Source of the DNA: a virus
Lineage: Duplodnaviria; Heunggongvirae; Uroviricota; Caudoviricetes
Length of the DNA: 6,620 nt
Reading direction: 5' to 3' (one strand)
Virus record (IMG/VR): IMGVR_UViG_2671180299_000021
Both the position numbers and the translations under genes were made by a program. Below, piece by piece: positions 185 to 6,620 of the stretch (position 1 is the stretch's first letter; every line of letters begins with the position of its first letter). The notes below the pieces were generated by a model. It did not search any database, was not told where the DNA came from, and saw only the letters and a list, made by a program, of their open reading frames with translations.

Positions 185-210
185 GACCGGCATCTGCCGG
201 TCTTTTTTTT
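185..210 (+). terminator. Rho-independent terminator (GACCGGC-atct-GCCGGTC stem followed by T8)
   Basis: Seen in sequence: 7-bp GC-rich inverted repeat at 185-191/196-202 immediately followed by eight T (203-210), placed 17 nt after the stop codon at 166-168. Confidence 0.65.
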
Positions 211-534: not shown

Positions 535-815
535 ATAGCATCAATCCAAGTAAAAATGCGTTTTCATTTCACATTAACTTACAGCCATTGGTATACGATT
601 AGGTATACGTACAAAAACTGAATTAAACAAAATCATTAAAAATCAAAGCAATACAGTATTTATTCAAACTCCGCCAGCCCACCAATCATGATTGGACGGT
701 GTAAGGACAACACCAACAAAAACAGGAAGTTAGCAGTCTCAGCAGGACACCGACCAGACGGTGAGGAGACAAAAAAGGATACGCAAAGGAGCCGCGGCTC
801 TCAAGTGTGAAAGAA

Positions 816-838
816 GCCCGCAAATTGCGGGCTTTTTT
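816..838 (+). terminator. Rho-independent terminator (GCCCGCA-aat-TGCGGGC followed by T6)
   Basis: Seen in sequence: perfect 7-bp GC-rich stem at 816-822/826-832 with a 3-nt loop, then TTTTTT at 833-838. Lies 55 nt upstream of the ATG at 894. Confidence 0.7.
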
Positions 839-893
839 ATTGATCAGTCAACAATAAACAGTAACCGAATGAGAATTTAATAAGGATATTCAT

Positions 894-1925
894 ATGGAAG
901 CTACTGTGGATTCGATTGATTTTCTGATCCGTAGTGAAGATGATTTTCTAAACTTTCTGGAAGAAATGAAAGCCCGAGAGGGGCTTGATTCTAAAGAGTT
1001 TATTTTCCCTAACGTAAAGTTTGCAGGCTGGCCATCCTTAGACATAAATGTAAAAGGAGAGCGGTATCATTCATCAATTACATCAGCAATGTTGTTTGGT
1101 ATGTCAATGCTCAACGAGGAGATACAGCGGGCGTTTGCAACCATACGATACGGATCGCAGAATCTTCAACGCTTGACTAATGAAGACAAGCAACGACTTG
1201 ATATAAATTTTAAAATTAGCGAAGGTTCTAGTGATGCGGAAGGCACCACTGACAAGATCATCAACGCAGTAACTGATTTTTTGCGAGATACTATGTCTGG
1301 ACTGAACGGCTGGCAGAAAATGCTTGTTATAATCACAATGGTTGGCGCGGCCAGCACATGTGGTTATCACTACATTTCAGAAAATGCCGTAACAGAAAGA
1401 CATGCAACTGATCGGCAGGTTGAAATTGCAAAAACCACATCCGATGGCATAAACAAAGCCATAGAAGCAACATTAGATTATAAAATCTATGGGAAATCAG
1501 CGATTAGCGATAAAGTTACTAGTCACGGACAAGCAGGTAAAAGTGCTTTAGTGAAGCAATTAGCTGCTGATCCTACTGTCGAAACCGTGACTTTAGGAAA
1601 TGAGAAACTAACACGACAAGACCTAAATACCTACAACAGCCGACAATCTGTAGATAGAGAACGTAAAGAACGAACTGATATATTTTCCATCAAAGGTGTA
1701 ACCAGAACAGGGCCAACAAATCAGGATATTAATATTAACGTTGTTAGGGTCTCTAATGACGAATGCTTCACAATCAAAGCTTCAGCTGATGTTATCACCC
1801 AAGATGAGTTGACAGCTATTGTTGACGCTTTGTCAAACAACTCTCATATTAAAATCAGTTACTTAGAGGTAATTGAAAAGGGTGCTGTTTCTATAGGTCA
1901 GTTCAACACTATTGTTTCAGAATAA
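894..1925 (+). CDS. Hypothetical protein, 343 aa (cargo gene A); mostly polar/charged with one hydrophobic segment near aa 143-158 (MLVIITMVGAASTCGY)
   Basis: Long ORF with Shine-Dalgarno AAGGA 7 nt upstream of the ATG. Visibly AT-rich relative to the phage tail genes. No catalytic or family motif recognised by eye. Confidence 0.8.
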   Translation: MEATVDSIDFLIRSEDDFLNFLEEMKAREGLDSKEFIFPNVKFAGWPSLDINVKGERYHSSITSAMLFGMSMLNEEIQRAFATIRYGSQNLQRLTNEDKQRLDINFKISEGSSDAEGTTDKIINAVTDFLRDTMSGLNGWQKMLVIITMVGAASTCGYHYISENAVTERHATDRQVEIAKTTSDGINKAIEATLDYKIYGKSAISDKVTSHGQAGKSALVKQLAADPTVETVTLGNEKLTRQDLNTYNSRQSVDRERKERTDIFSIKGVTRTGPTNQDININVVRVSNDECFTIKASADVITQDELTAIVDALSNNSHIKISYLEVIEKGAVSIGQFNTIVSE

Positions 1926-1976
1926 TCACTTAACCCCATTTATGTCGGTTGAGGTTATAAGTCACGGAGACCAGAT

Positions 1977-2321
1977 ATGTCCTTAAAGTATGCACATGAA
2001 AAATTTCATACTGCAGTACTTACTCTTGCGGGCCATGGAAGTATTCAAGAACGCTTGATTAATTCGTATGTTTTTAGCCTTGGGCATCTTAAAACAGCCG
2101 ATGATATTCCAAATGCCTTACAAAGCAGGTTCGATGAATTATGTAAGGAACTGACTAAGTTTGATGCCACTGGCGATGAGGGGCGAGTTCAAGCAACAGT
2201 ATCAAAACTTAACGATTTCGAGATCAATAAACTGATCGAAGATATTGTCAGTCTTAACGATGATATTTGCATGAAATTGGCTCTGACGGATGAGACTTAC
2301 CAAGACATACACCAAAGTTAA
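1977..2321 (+). CDS. Hypothetical small acidic protein, 114 aa (cargo gene B), co-oriented with gene A
   Basis: ORF begins 51 nt after the gene A stop, with GGAG 7 nt upstream of the ATG. Followed 28 nt downstream by a strong hairpin terminator. Product not recognised. Confidence 0.7.
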   Translation: MSLKYAHEKFHTAVLTLAGHGSIQERLINSYVFSLGHLKTADDIPNALQSRFDELCKELTKFDATGDEGRVQATVSKLNDFEINKLIEDIVSLNDDICMKLALTDETYQDIHQS

Positions 2322-2348
2322 TTGATTAAATTCAAAAAGTTAACGTTC

Positions 2349-2380
2349 AACCAGCCAGTTTTTGGCTGGTTTATTGTCTT
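2349..2380. terminator. Bidirectional intrinsic terminator between convergent genes (AACCAGCCA-gtttt-TGGCTGGTT then T-rich)
   Basis: Seen in sequence: perfect 9-bp stem at 2349-2357/2363-2371 with a T-rich tail on the + strand (TTATTGTCTT) and a T5 run 11 nt downstream on the - strand. Sits between the stop of the + gene (2321) and the stop of the - gene (2406). Confidence 0.65.
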
Positions 2381-2405
2381 ATAATATTCTTGCTCGAATG
2401 ATGCA

Positions 2406-2618
2406 CTATTTATGATGTAATCCGGACATCAGTTCATGGACAAGATTATCTCTTTCATTGTGTTGCAACCGTAAATGCATAGCAAAAAGGTGAGCACTAT
2501 CCTCATTCCTCTTCAAGCCATGCTGTTCAAGATACCCGAAAAAACGGCTTCTCTTATCCGCTATTTCCTGAGTCTGACGTGCAACATTTACCAAATTTTC
2601 TAGCGTTTTTCTTGGCAT
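2406..2618 (-). CDS. Hypothetical small protein, 70 aa (cargo gene C), immediately downstream of pin on the same strand
   Basis: ORF with strong Shine-Dalgarno AGGAGG 7 nt upstream of the ATG (plus-strand 2616-2618 = CAT). Product (MPRKTLENLVNVARQTQEIADKRSRFFGYLEQHGL...) not recognised. Confidence 0.65.
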   Translation of the reverse strand: MPRKTLENLVNVARQTQEIADKRSRFFGYLEQHGLKRNEDSAHLFAMHLRLQHNERDNLVHELMSGLHHK

Positions 2619-2659
2619 ACTATTTCCTCCTGAAATTGTTGTAATTCACTAGGATATTC

Positions 2660-2687
2660 ATTTTAATTTGTATCATTTAGTACCAAA
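2660..2687 (-). promoter_or_regulatory. Candidate sigma70 promoter for gene C (-35 TTGGTA/TTTGGT, -10 TAAAAT on the minus strand)
   Basis: Read by eye on the minus strand: TAAAAT (plus 2660-2665) about 40 nt upstream of the ATG, with a TTGGTA-like hexamer 15-16 nt further upstream. Match is marginal. Confidence 0.25.
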
Positions 2688-2816
2688 ACCGCTATCAATT
2701 AACAAAGCCATCGTTGTGGTTTACCTTGCAGCCGTTTTTTGTCATTGACTCTATGTGAAAATAATGAATCATCATGAGATTGGCTCACACGTTCTTGAAT
2801 TCGACGAGCTGTGTCT

Positions 2817-3371
2817 TTATTTATCTCCTGCCGGAAACCTCTGATACAAAGTCGATACGCCAACATCATAGATAATCGCAACTTTCTGGCGCGGAACTCC
2901 TGATGCAATTAATCGTCCGGCTTGTGCCCATTGTTCTGGTGTAAGTTTGGGACGACGTCCACCAATTCGTCCCTGTGCGCGAGCAGCTTCCAGTCCAGCT
3001 TTTGTTCGTTCAACAATCAGTTCTCGTTCCATTTCAGCCAGGGCCCCCATCACATGAAAGAAAAAGCGCCCCATTGGGGTACTGGTATCAATTGAATCCG
3101 TCAGACTACGAAAGTTGATGCCTCGTTCGCGCAACTCCTCCACCAGCACGACAAGATGCCGCATACTGCGCCCCAGTCGGTCCAGTTTCCAGACCACCAG
3201 CGTATCGCCTGCCGATAATGTCCTGAGCAGTTTTTTCAGTCCCGGCCTTTCGGACTTTGTACCGCTTATCTTGTCTTCAAAAATCAGCTCGCATCCTGCA
3301 CAGTTCAGCGCATTACGTTGTAGATCTGTGTTCTGGTCATTTGTTGACACACGTACATAGCCAATAAGCAT
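2817..3371 (-). CDS. pin: Serine-recombinase DNA invertase Pin (Hin/Gin/Cin/Pin family), 184 aa
   Basis: Translation MLIGYVRVSTNDQNTDLQRNAL... carries the resolvase/invertase N-terminal catalytic motif (YVRVSTxxQ, Ser10) and a C-terminal HTH region (VAIIYDVGVSTLYQRF). Length of 184 aa fits Pin. GGGAG Shine-Dalgarno sits 8 nt upstream of the ATG at 3371; the track ORF starts 12 codons earlier at 3407 with no SD. Lies next to an invertible tail-fibre segment. Confidence 0.95.
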   Translation of the reverse strand: MLIGYVRVSTNDQNTDLQRNALNCAGCELIFEDKISGTKSERPGLKKLLRTLSAGDTLVVWKLDRLGRSMRHLVVLVEELRERGINFRSLTDSIDTSTPMGRFFFHVMGALAEMERELIVERTKAGLEAARAQGRIGGRRPKLTPEQWAQAGRLIASGVPRQKVAIIYDVGVSTLYQRFPAGDK

Positions 3372-3397
3372 GGTAGATCTCCCTGACAAAAGCAGGA

Positions 3398-3910
3398 ATG
3401 ATGCCATTTGCTCGTTATTTCTGCATTTTCATAAACGTTGGTTTGGGAGAAGGTTCGGCATTACCCGTTGGTGTGCCTGTTCCGTGGCCTTCCGCCACTC
3501 CGCCAACGGGGTGGCTAAAATGTAACGGAGCAGTATTTTCTTCTGAAAAGTACCCAAATCTGGCAAAGGCTTACCCAACATTAAAATTACCAGATTTACG
3601 CGGTGAATTTATTCGTGGCTGGGATGATGGGCGCGGGATTGACTCTGGTCGTAACTTATTATCTGCACAGAATGATGCAATTCAGAATATTGTTGGTTCT
3701 TTTGGGCGTACCCAGCTTTTTAGAGACGTACTTAGTTCAGGGCCATTTAGTCAACATGGGCAAGTATTATCTACAGGTCTAAAGGAAGCCGAAATTATTG
3801 AGGGTTATGGCGCTTATAACTGGACATTCGACGCATCTCGCTCAGTTCGCACAGCATCTGAAACCCGCTCCCGTAACATCGCCTTTAATTATATTGTGAG
3901 GGCTGCATGA
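3398..3910 (+). CDS. Alternative tail-fibre C-terminal (receptor-binding) cassette, currently in the silent orientation (stfE-like); functional coding starts at the crossover site near 3434
   Basis: Translation contains the conserved tail-fibre C-terminal signature (...PTLKLPDLRGEFIRGWDDGRGIDSGRNLLSAQNDAIQNIVGSF...). The frame enters from the crossover site (NVGLGE). No independent SD; the upstream ORF portion overlaps the pin start in antisense. Confidence 0.8.
   Translation: MMPFARYFCIFINVGLGEGSALPVGVPVPWPSATPPTGWLKCNGAVFSSEKYPNLAKAYPTLKLPDLRGEFIRGWDDGRGIDSGRNLLSAQNDAIQNIVGSFGRTQLFRDVLSSGPFSQHGQVLSTGLKEAEIIEGYGAYNWTFDASRSVRTASETRSRNIAFNYIVRAA
3426..3451. other. 26-bp recombination (crossover) site, pin-proximal (pix/gix/hix-like)
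   Basis: TTTTCATAAACGTTGGTTTGGGAGAA is an inverted copy (21 of 26 positions identical) of the site at 5371-5396. Both encode N-x-G-L-G-E in the tail-fibre reading frames, and the central dinucleotide is TT here against AA at the partner. Confidence 0.7.
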
Positions 3911-4512
3911 TAAGTAAAGCTGTATTAAATAATGAACTCATCGCCACAAAGGCCGGAGACATTACCGTTTATAATTATGATGGTGAAACACGGGAATATA
4001 TTTCCACATCAACTGAATATCTTGCTGTGGGTGTTGGTATCCCGGCATGTTCCTGTTTAGATGCTCCTGGCTCATATAAAGCTGGTTATGCAATTTGCCG
4101 TTCTGCAGATTTTAACTCATGGGAATATGTGCCAGACCATCGCGGTGAAATCGTCTATAGCACCGAAACAGGAGAATCAAAAGAAATCACAGTTCCGGGT
4201 GATTACCCTGAAAATACAACCACTATCGCCCCGTTAACGTCATACGATAAATGGGATGGTGAGAAATGGGTGACCGATACTGAGGCACAGCATAACGCCG
4301 CAGTAGACGCGGCAGAAGTACGGCGCCAGTCACTGATTGATGCTGCTATGGCTTCCATTAGTCTGATTCAGCTGAAATTGCAGGCCGGGCGGAAGCTGAC
4401 GCAGGCAGAAACAACCCGGCTTAACGCTGTGCTGGATTACATTGACGCGGTGACTGCAACAGATACCAGCACCGCGCCGGATGTCATCTGGCCTGAACTA
4501 CCGGAGGCGTAG
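3907..4512 (+). CDS. Tail fibre assembly protein (Tfa family), partner of the silent cassette, 201 aa
   Basis: ATGA start/stop overlap with the preceding cassette (translational coupling). C-terminus ...NAVLDYIDAVTATDTSTAPDVIWPELPEA is the typical Tfa chaperone motif. Confidence 0.85.
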   Translation: MISKAVLNNELIATKAGDITVYNYDGETREYISTSTEYLAVGVGIPACSCLDAPGSYKAGYAICRSADFNSWEYVPDHRGEIVYSTETGESKEITVPGDYPENTTTIAPLTSYDKWDGEKWVTDTEAQHNAAVDAAEVRRQSLIDAAMASISLIQLKLQAGRKLTQAETTRLNAVLDYIDAVTATDTSTAPDVIWPELPEA

Positions 4513-4927
4513 GCCATTCAATATCTGGAGCACTGGAGGTATCAACCAGTTCCAGTGCGTCCAGATAATCCAGCCATAAATTATATTGTTCCAGCTCGTA
4601 ACCTTTCAGACGACCAATAGCAGCTTTGCCAGGCCACTGATGGGTATTGATGTAGGTATTGACTTCTGAAACCAAAGATATCTTTTTCATTTCAGCCGCC
4701 AGCATCTCATCCTCTTTTGAAGGCGGCGGGGAATTAATCCATATTGGCCGTCCTGAACTGTCAGCGCCAATTTCTTTCCCTTCTGGATGCAGCCCAAGAA
4801 ATTGCTCATATGTTTCTCTGGTAATTTCAATAACATCATCAGGAAGCGTTCCCGCATCCTCATATTCTGGAAACAATTCTTGCAGATAAAAACTTTTACT
4901 TGCGGGTGAAAAGAATACTGAGTTCAT
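4484..4927 (-). CDS. Tail fibre assembly protein (Tfa family), partner of the currently expressed tail fibre, 147 aa
   Basis: C-terminus ...LWLDYLDALELVDTSSAPDIEWPTPP is the Tfa signature. Starts 2 nt after the stf stop on the minus strand. Confidence 0.85.
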   Translation of the reverse strand: MNSVFFSPASKSFYLQELFPEYEDAGTLPDDVIEITRETYEQFLGLHPEGKEIGADSSGRPIWINSPPPSKEDEMLAAEMKKISLVSEVNTYINTHQWPGKAAIGRLKGYELEQYNLWLDYLDALELVDTSSAPDIEWPTPPVVQAR

Positions 4928-4929
4928 TC

Positions 4930-5673
4930 TTACCGTCCAATGATTAACGCTGAGACGCTGGTATCTGAAGGAAAGGCTGCATTCAGTGGTTTGTCGACTT
5001 TGAACACAATCGTATTATTCCCCCTGACAGCGGCAAAAGAACAAACCGCCGTCGCGTATGAACCTGTAATATTACTGGATACACCACCATAAGCTGTTGT
5101 TGATACCAGAGGGATAACGCCCAGCACCTTATTAGGAAATACAAAGGGCAATGTGGCTGTGGCAATATAAGACTTATTAGAACCTGTAATGGCATAAGCA
5201 TTATCAGTCATTCCATTCATCGCCACTGGACCGCTTATACTTACAGTAACCATCTGAATGATTAGCCCGTCAGGTTGACGAATCACAAAATTTCCATTGC
5301 CACCAGTAACCGTCCAGAAAGACATATCAGGGATTTGGTTTTCCCCGTTGCCCACATTTCGTTTTGCCGCTTCTCCCAAACCAAGGTTTTCGAGAGCCGT
5401 TTTCACCGTGCCATCAGATTTGATATCGCCAAACGGATTCTTGCGGCTTAACAGCAGCGCACGAAGCGCGGTAAGCAGCTGGTCATGCCGCCCCTTCTCC
5501 AGGCTGGCACCGGATGCCTCCACCACGCTGCAGAGTTCTTCCTGCAACATGTCAAAGTAGTCATCATCCAGATCGGTGGCAGGTGTGCCGGTCTGGGGGT
5601 TACCACGGGTAAAACCGTTCTTACCCGCGCCGAACTTATCCTTCTGCGCGGTTTTCGTGTCTATACGATGCAT
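4930..5673 (-). CDS. Side tail fibre protein, 247 aa: constant N-terminal part (5397-5673) fused to the variable C-terminal cassette in the expressed orientation
   Basis: GGAG Shine-Dalgarno 6 nt upstream of the ATG. Crossover site at 5371-5396 encodes [10 protein letters not shown] at about aa 93-102. Starts 3 nt after the upstream ymfQ-like stop. Confidence 0.85.
5371..5396. other. 26-bp recombination (crossover) site inside the tail-fibre gene (constant/variable junction)
   Basis: TTCTCCCAAACCAAGGTTTTCGAGAG has imperfect dyad symmetry around a central AA and is the inverted partner of 3426-3451. Resembles published gix/hix/cix-type sites as recalled from the literature (family consensus of the type TTnnCnnAAACCnnGGTTTnnGnnAA). 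Confidence 0.7.
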
Positions 5674-5676
5674 GGA

Positions 5677-6620
<944 letters not shown>

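Follow-up and report, generated by a model that had tools for sequence, protein, structure and literature searches.

The question raised by this locus is whether a non-coding stretch lying in front of two prophage genes, here called A and B, constitutes a regulatory RNA of its own. The stretch, positions 540 to 893, belongs to a DNA of 6,620 nucleotides from a virus (IMG/VR record IMGVR_UViG_2671180299_000021, Caudoviricetes), which was analysed over its full length and is called the window. An earlier note made from the sequence alone had seen in this region a single unit, first AT-rich, then structured and closed by a strong terminator, and had proposed that it encodes either a discrete small RNA (sRNA) or a conditional attenuator of the operon A-B. 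All the features on which this proposal was built are indeed present. The one-unit reading, on the other hand, had to be given up: the AT-rich and the structured halves are of unrelated origin and meet at an attachment (att) core, the listed features come from three unrelated pieces of DNA, and 540-893 is neither a private small RNA nor the leader of gene A. We propose instead, with a probability of about 0.88, that it is the right attachment site (attR) of a P4-like satellite prophage integrated in ssrA, the gene that encodes transfer-messenger RNA (tmRNA), upstream of a prophage remnant that was already there. In the best-supported description, the region is a composite of the satellite attR arm, a pseudo-ssrA core, the displaced 3′ trailer of ssrA with its terminator, and the 5′ untranslated region (UTR) of gene A. 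Structures of this kind are known: mobile elements join in tandem at ssrA, and the counterpart in Escherichia coli K-12 is the attR/psaA of the CP4-57 element. The tmRNA locus is a known hotspot of E. coli for prophages and P4-like satellites (PMC10121019), and it is a general principle that islands regenerate their target gene and leave a displaced fragment of it at their far end (PMC4383910).

The left part of the window is satellite DNA. Positions 1 to 523 are 94% identical to phage P4 and contain the alpha primase gene's 3′ end, the terminator t-alpha and the cis replication region (crr). The end of the alpha-type primase-helicase gene, which serves satellite replication, occupies 1-168 on the + strand; besides the DNA identity to P4, it gave a match to the C-terminal part of Pfam Pox_D5 (E 1.6e-4), and relatives are annotated as primase-helicase. 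The intrinsic terminator t-alpha follows at 185-210 (+ strand), where the terminator scan matched 185-202 and a T run, and where the P4 record carries the annotation 't alpha' at the homologous place. The crr (224-523) consists of two 120-bp direct repeats, at 224-343 and 404-523 (repeat family D1), with TGTTCACC iterons; the P4 record annotates crr and its type 1 repeats. Nine TGTTCACC-like sites were found in 229-500 and 14 in the whole window, against 5.8 expected, and none of 200 shuffles reached 14. The homology to P4 stops at 523, which is the last base of the second crr repeat; past crr, P4 has its attP arm. A P4-type replication module (alpha, crr) thus abuts the junction, as at the attR of a P4-family satellite.

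Beyond this point, positions 524 to 662 form the satellite side of attR, an AT-rich attachment-site arm. The G+C content is 27-34% in the 100-nt windows over 501-700 compared with about 50% on either side, which bears out the AT-rich segment noted before at 540-670. The arm is 98.9% identical to that of a complete P4-like satellite integrated at ssrA in E. coli MDR_56, where it is joined to the same ssrA trailer. The order of the MDR_56 element is ssrA, int, HEPN/DUF262 cargo, psu, delta, other genes, alpha, crr and arm; its integrase shares 37% identity with P4 Int (E 1e-85), and the integrase gene and attL stand beside an intact ssrA at the other end of the element. In strain CFSAN027350, the homology to the arm stops at about window position 680, where another integrase island follows. 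At least 80% of 540-893 is covered in 233 E. coli genomes; among the matches listed, the span consists of arm, core and trailer (540-845).

The junction itself lies at 662/663-684, with the P4-like satellite DNA on its left and the downstream flank of ssrA on its right. The att core (663-684, + strand) repeats the final 22 nucleotides of ssrA in degenerate form, as a pseudo-ssrA of the 'psaA' type lacking T357: it reads TTCAAACTCCGCCAGC-CCACCA where the real gene has TTCAACTCCCGCCAGCTCCACCA. Positions 673-684, GCCAGCCCACCA, carry the CGCCAGC-CCACCA (delta-T357) signature, which is listed for P4-type integrases at ssrA (Table 1 of PMC10107115). Aligned with strain EC1515, the window diverges from ssrA upstream of about 663, whereas 663-6620 is 99.6% identical to EC1515, and the two best genome matches to the window begin at 663. 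As at an attR, the element boundary bears a displaced piece of ssrA, copied from its 3′ end; ARAGORN detected no tmRNA gene anywhere in the window. A duplicate of icd′ of the e14 type, suggested by the pinE/ymfQ context, was also considered and was dropped once ssrA was seen abutting the segment.

The equivalent of this core in K-12 is annotated as the pseudogene psaA (b4645) at the right end of CP4-57. Both loci have a displaced and imperfect copy of the ssrA 3′ end without T357 and, behind it, the same trailer with its terminator (about 89% identity), and both have on their left a P4-family integrase element with a tandem arm repeat of 12-nt period about 53 nt from the core. They differ in that the window element is a true P4-like satellite, with alpha and crr, and in that the trailer is followed in K-12 by the convergent ypjA and in the window by the prophage cargo cassette of genes A and B. 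The attP region of P4 shows the same order and spacing, namely crr, an AT-rich arm with tandem repeats of 12-nt period, and the core some 50-55 nt further on. The target of P4 is the tRNA-Leu gene leuX. P4 has another target site than the window element, and its core and arm motif (GGGGGCA) are unrelated.

The arm repeats deserve a closer look. Two exact copies of GGTATACG are present at 590-597 and 602-609 (+ strand) with a 12-nt period, which is the direct repeat seen before, and the pair ends 53 nt before the core. By itself, a lone pair of 8-mers is weak evidence, since the window contains four matches with at most one mismatch against 3.0 expected. Three further exact copies, however, a tandem pair and an inverted one, are found in MDR_56 between ssrA and the start codon of int (positions 5816, 5828 and, on the minus strand, 5856 of locus L007), and a diverged satellite in NCCP 15734 (81% identity) keeps a GGTATACG/GGTATACA pair at the same place. 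The geometry is also that of known elements. In the P4 record, 'attP arm sequence repeats' of 12 nt, in tandem (GGGGGCA, two copies), are annotated on either side of the core, the pair on the crr side lying about 54 nt from it, and CP4-57 of K-12 has two copies of GGACCAA with a 12-nt period about 53 nt from its core, the same arrangement with another motif than GGTATACG. The GGTATACG pair looks like a pair of arm-type sites to which the integrase would bind. An IMG/VR contig (L174) also has the GGTATACG arm repeats of a P4-like satellite.

To the right of the core lies the 3′ trailer of the ssrA transcription unit, which extends over 154 nt from behind the CCA end to the first intrinsic terminator (685-838, + strand). 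In the window it is displaced, while it directly follows ssrA in EC1515, BH100 and RM13322. In EC1515, ssrA (3661-4023 of locus L002, according to both ARAGORN and RefSeq) runs straight into the trailer, a single difference from the window, at 814, being found over 685-900, and behind the trailer come, as in the window, genes A and B, pinE and tail-fibre genes. BH100 has ssrA, the trailer and then glaH, with no island; RM13322 has ssrA and the trailer and then a restriction-modification pair; in K-12 and O157, an island has inserted, with the trailer at its far end and the convergent ypjA behind it. Of 5426 complete E. coli genomes, 4269 had the trailer and 46 the cassette of genes A and B, and ssrA lay directly 5′ of the trailer in 19 of 40 sampled E. 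coli rows. The homology between the window and the K-12-type flanks, or among trailer types, ends at about 845. Since none of the hairpins between the CCA end and 816 has a U run, the ssrA unit meets its first intrinsic terminator at 816-838; because the trailer is native to ssrA and found in 4269 genomes against 46, this terminator belongs to ssrA and not to genes A-B.

The search was extended beyond E. coli with a 19-mer from the centre of the trailer, using one genome per species. The contig scan gave many chance matches in high-GC genomes, so only loci of Enterobacteriaceae were used, of which L038 was also a chance match. The trailer directly follows ssrA in Escherichia albertii, E. ruysiae, E. 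whittamii, Klebsiella indica, K. spallanzanii, Leclercia and Pseudenterobacter, and it follows a copy of the ssrA end or another junction in Enterobacter and Citrobacter. The mean column identity of the trailer was 91% (19 sequences), and the sequence behind the terminator is unalignable among these genomes. Phages also carry the trailer: in phage LLS, a 39-nt 'tmRNA pseudogene' and attP are annotated beside xis-int, and the trailer comes next. It was likewise found in phages phiNP and Ayreon, in a 44.6-kb circular element and in at least 120 IMG/VR contigs.

These data suggest the following history. Before the satellite arrived, 685-838 would have lain directly behind ssrA, and in this native arrangement transcription would probably have run on to 838, giving pre-tmRNA the trailer as its 3′ tail, the terminator ending ssrA transcription and insulating the cargo genes. 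The satellite would have inserted later, between ssrA and the older prophage remnant. The terminator, severed here from the ssrA promoter, could stop only transcription entering from the satellite end. The tyrosine integrase of the satellite would bind the arm sites and the core and recombine attL with attR. Excision of CP4-57 causes the T357 deletion and inactivates tmRNA, and ribosome rescue switches to ArfA (PMC10107115); by analogy, excision of the satellite would leave ssrA with the delta-T357 defect.

Several points weigh against this reconstruction. The window contains neither ssrA, nor attL, nor an integrase, and the satellite need not be complete or active in this genome. No complete E. 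coli genome in the collection combines the satellite, this trailer variant and gene A. Since phages also carry the trailer beside their attP, the copy in the window may be prophage-borne rather than ancestral chromosomal DNA. Finally, the binding of an integrase to GGTATACG is deduced solely from geometry and co-occurrence.

Other arrangements of the ssrA tail also exist. In MDR_56, the satellite supplies its own short ssrA tail and terminator (GCCCGCA...TGCGGGC followed by T6, about 40 nt after the CCA end; L007 5701-5770), which is unrelated to the native 154-nt trailer; the 3′ tails of tmRNA thus differ among strains. As K-12 uses an island-supplied tail and MDR_56 one supplied by its satellite, the trailer is not essential for tmRNA function. 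A 74-nt trailer core (window 704-777) is present at 92% identity on the Klebsiella pneumoniae plasmid pHNGS471-3 (L012 4001-4074) and on five other Klebsiella plasmids. These plasmids are of IncFII/IncR type; the core has unrelated flanks there, lacking both ssrA end and terminator, and its neighbours include queH, yagU and TonB/TolA-like genes. The plasmid copies may stem from an IMG/VR variant (L162) that has the ssrA end joined directly to the trailer core. In E. albertii NBRC 107761 (L015), the trailer has an internal deletion of about 770-790, and the usual terminator sequence is lacking, a natural variant that might give clues to function.

The trailer is predicted to be structured. The segment 685-838 folds better than its shuffles (z -3.2), and RNAalifold gave five hairpins, H1 (682-695), H2 (698-714), H3 (736-770), H4 (788-801) and the terminator, all on the + strand. 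On this structure 98.6% of the alignment cells pair, and 98% do so in 82 distinct variants including IMG/VR contigs. Six base pairs change on both sides, compared with 2.7 in shuffles (none of 500 reaching six) and 0-2 in slid controls. H1, predicted by both RNAfold and RNAalifold, is the perfect palindrome CCAATCATGATTGG already noticed before; the CCA that ends the ssrA copy makes up its first three bases and the start of the trailer the others. Hardly any variation and no compensatory change were seen in it, so that a role as RNA and a role as DNA, as the core site of an integrase, are indistinguishable; several other elements have their junction inside this palindrome. H2 has a 5-bp stem and the loop AAGGACA, with double-sided changes at two pairs (among the 82 variants, 698-714 is GC in 48 and AU in 28, and 702-710 is AU in 35, UA in 31 and CG in 11). 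H3, with an outer stem 736-740/766-770 and an inner stem 748-752/759-763, is 100% paired in the RNAalifold structure, although the invariance of the inner stem is limited by ascertainment, the stem lying inside the 18- and 19-mers used to collect the homologues. In H4 (GGAGC-CGCG-GCUCU), the pair 792-797 is CG in 77 variants and UA in 4.

The hairpin at 816-838 has the form of an intrinsic terminator, GCCCGC-AAAUU-GCGGGC followed by U6, with a 6-bp stem made exclusively of G and C (816-821/827-832), a loop at 822-826 and the T run at 833-838. The pair 820-828 is GC in 68 variants and AU in 13, and the stem is kept while the loop and the flanks vary. RNAfold, the inverted-repeat finder (repeat I7) and covariation agree on this predicted terminator, which the earlier note had also recognized. 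A simple consensus scan for terminators did not list 816-838; we take this as a limit of the scan, probably due to the flanking A/T runs that extend the stem.

A second property of the trailer is its density of AGGA motifs: 130 nt hold six of them where 1.57 would be expected, a count reached in 4 of 5000 shuffles, and GGA recurs about once per 19 nt. Four of them are spaced by 20 nt (704, 724, 744 and 764), and two more lie at 776 and 787. Those at 704 (in the loop of H2), 724, 744 and 776 are unpaired in the consensus fold and are kept in 68 to 82 of the 82 variants. Two divergent trailers, from the IMG/VR viral contigs L122 and L174, both keep the hairpin CACCG-ACCAGA-CGGUG; L174, whose copy of the ssrA end reads CCCCAGC, also keeps the hairpin with the AGGAC loop on another stem (GUGCA/UGCAC) and the AAAAAGGA linker. 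The ssrA trailer is apparently a conserved, structured RNA element of which we found no earlier description: the literature search returned none for an enterobacterial ssrA trailer, nor did we find a paper with its sequence in the searchable library.

Behind the trailer begins the cargo cassette. Its first part, 839-893 (+ strand), is the 5′ UTR of gene A, in which a Shine-Dalgarno sequence, AAGGA at 882-886, can be read. Gene A (894-1925, + strand) starts 55 nt after the terminator and matches only phrog_6191, a family of unknown function (E 7e-38); gene B (1977-2321, + strand) lies behind it. As neither gene matched Pfam, NCBIfam or PADLOC, the label of a toxic or defence operon that had been suggested for A-B is unsupported, though conceivable. 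The weak promoter proposed at 840-867 (TTGATC-N16-TAACCG) is present, but only about 6 of its 12 positions agree with the consensus, which is below the threshold of the scan, and this consensus scan found no sigma-70-like promoter on the + strand in 150-1000. The slot behind the ssrA terminator varies in content: genes A and B in the window (839-2700), a type II restriction-modification pair in RM13322, the convergent ypjA in K-12 and O157, and none but glaH in BH100 (for the other loci, L009 2755-5172, L003 3647-8227 and L008 2680-3203). The last 40 or so nucleotides of the trailer (about 803-845) also differ among strains with different downstream cargo, which suggests that the cargo is exchanged by recombination anchored in the conserved trailer.

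The two explanations put forward at the outset can now be weighed. According to one, a promoter in 540-680 drives an sRNA of 150-200 nt that ends at 838. Part of this stands: the terminator is real, 685-838 resembles a structured RNA ending at 838, with its stable fold and its compensatory changes, and arm and trailer are joined among the listed matches from the 233 genomes. Its promoter part does not, because the AT-rich DNA is foreign to the trailer, which in most genomes is preceded by ssrA or by other elements, and the upstream DNA is not conserved with the RNA body. No sigma-70-like promoter was detected on the + strand in 150-1000, and the K-12 annotation has no non-coding RNA between psaA and ypjA. 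The search of Rfam suggested by the earlier note (whole window, and a permissive scan of 520-900) gave no family for the flagged stretch but sub-threshold matches only, mostly to the terminator hairpin on either strand (Leu, Trp and Thr leaders, SraG, MicC, RsmZ). We consider such an sRNA gene very unlikely. According to the other, A-B is transcribed from upstream and 816-838 is a conditional terminator, which would fit its short distance from gene A, the lack of a detected promoter between them, and the very active ssrA promoter directly upstream in EC1515-like strains, from which read-through could feed gene A. In Streptococcus pyogenes M1, the ssrA terminator is indeed read through into the prophage gene speA (PMC9951164), which shares with gene A of the EC1515 type its position as prophage cargo just after the ssrA terminator and the lack of a strong promoter of its own. 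By this analogy, read-through from ssrA could have contributed to gene A expression in the ancestral arrangement; that much of the idea of a supply from upstream is conceivable, but in the window the satellite separates gene A from ssrA by its own length and has taken the ssrA promoter out of the vicinity. Moreover, the trailer with its terminator is about 90 times more widespread than A-B and precedes unrelated or convergent genes (glaH, the restriction-modification pair, ypjA). The minimum free energy, centroid and consensus folds all show a row of independent hairpins without an antiterminator, and the matches to the Leu, Trp and Thr leaders, on the terminator hairpin only, reach 15-24 bits compared with thresholds of 41-55. 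A conditional attenuator is highly improbable. With mobile elements arrayed in tandem at the tmRNA gene as the explanation of the region, no case is left for a private riboregulator of A-B.

Two further explanations concern the trailer itself. Its conservation might be that of DNA, 685-815 being an attachment arm of lambdoid ssrA phages, the AGGA motifs protein-binding sites, and the spread between genera phage-borne. The copies beside xis-int in LLS and in phiNP, Ayreon, the circular element and the IMG/VR contigs argue for it, as do the 20-nt period of AGGA, which is about two helical turns, and the palindrome at 682-695, which never covaries. However, the stems of H2, H4 and the terminator keep their pairing through two-sided changes, which selection for pairing would explain and protein-binding sites on DNA would not; the trailer is also found at sites without an island, as in BH100. 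We regard this explanation as unlikely, though the least improbable of those considered besides attR. As for a small protein, the window does contain an open reading frame (ORF) of 40 amino acids at 688-810 on the + strand and one of 45 amino acids at 686-823 on the - strand. The former is broken by stops in most relatives: 35 of the 82 variants stop after 4 codons, about 18 keep at least 39 codons or reach the end of the segment, and both BH100 and MDR_56 have TAA at codon 16. Its variable columns are spread evenly over the codon positions (22/17/19), so that the earlier statement that the stretch holds no plausible ORF is upheld and a protein has next to no probability.

If the trailer at the attR of the satellite is an RNA element, what could it do? 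In function it would most nearly resemble a 3′ external transcribed spacer (3′ETS) released from a tRNA-like precursor. The 3′ETS of tRNA operons can act as RNAs, as does 3′ETS-leuZ of E. coli. Like it, the trailer is a spacer between a tRNA-like 3′ end (CCA) and the intrinsic terminator of the operon, and 3′ processing would free it together with the terminator hairpin. This location is found in the relatives where ssrA abuts the trailer, whereas in the window the parent gene is displaced; the trailer also differs from the 3′ETS-leuZ type in being longer (154 nt) and in having four hairpins and AGGA repeats. The trailer further shares with the CsrA-sequestering RNAs CsrB, CsrC and RsmZ its dense A(N)GGA motifs, several of them in loops or linkers, and a terminator at the end. 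CsrB is much longer, and the likeness, which lies in the density and the placement of the motifs, can do no more than suggest a role as CsrA sponge; the models of CsrB and CsrC gave no match at E<=10, and the best Rfam match of the trailer, PrrB_RsmZ, scored 19.0 bits against a gathering score of 44. The trailer may function as a pre-tmRNA spacer, possibly a protein-binding one. A more elaborate proposal can be made tentatively, and we think it rather doubtful as a whole: the 154-nt trailer would be a conserved structured RNA of Enterobacterales, with four hairpins and a terminator, the invariant CACCG-ACCAGA-CGGUG and AGGA motifs of 20-nt period, made as the tail of pre-tmRNA and acting in cis, on how tmRNA matures or on its level, or else in trans, as a spacer of the CsrA or Hfq sponge type that binds protein or RNA. 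Phages of ssrA would carry a copy so that their integration preserves the trailer, and P4-type elements would disconnect it from the ssrA promoter.

Further features lie downstream of the cassette. A pinE-type DNA invertase (2817-3407, - strand) lies within 2817-5673, flanked by opposed ORFs for tail fibre and tail-fibre assembly at 3398-4512 (+ strand) and 4484-5673 (- strand), and the whole is an invertible host-range segment as classically found in an e14/Mu-like prophage. An ORF of 70 amino acids between gene B and pinE (2406-2618, - strand), annotated as a hypothetical protein in RefSeq relatives, matched no family in Pfam, PADLOC, PHROGs or NCBIfam. The homology to full prophages ends near 6240, so that the prophage is truncated in this lineage. 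Just past the remnant, at 6305-6427 (+ strand), a full-length match to the Hfq-binding RNA isrC was found (150 bits, E 1e-37), the sole true Rfam match in the window and unrelated to the flagged stretch; in related genomes, isrC adjoins remnants of an autotransporter (ypjA-like).

The flagged region is therefore explained by well-known biology, a mobile-element array at the tmRNA gene with a displaced gene fragment and a host terminator. By analogy with CP4-57, excision of the satellite would be expected to inactivate tmRNA and to shift ribosome rescue to ArfA. The novelty that remains is the ssrA trailer, which is conserved, structured, rich in AGGA and copied by phages. If the proposal made for it is true, its disconnection by CP4-57 in K-12 would explain why it went unnoticed there. 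Should the trailer be a functional RNA, the long-studied ssrA would have an overlooked companion whose linkage to the promoter is toggled by the insertion of mobile elements.

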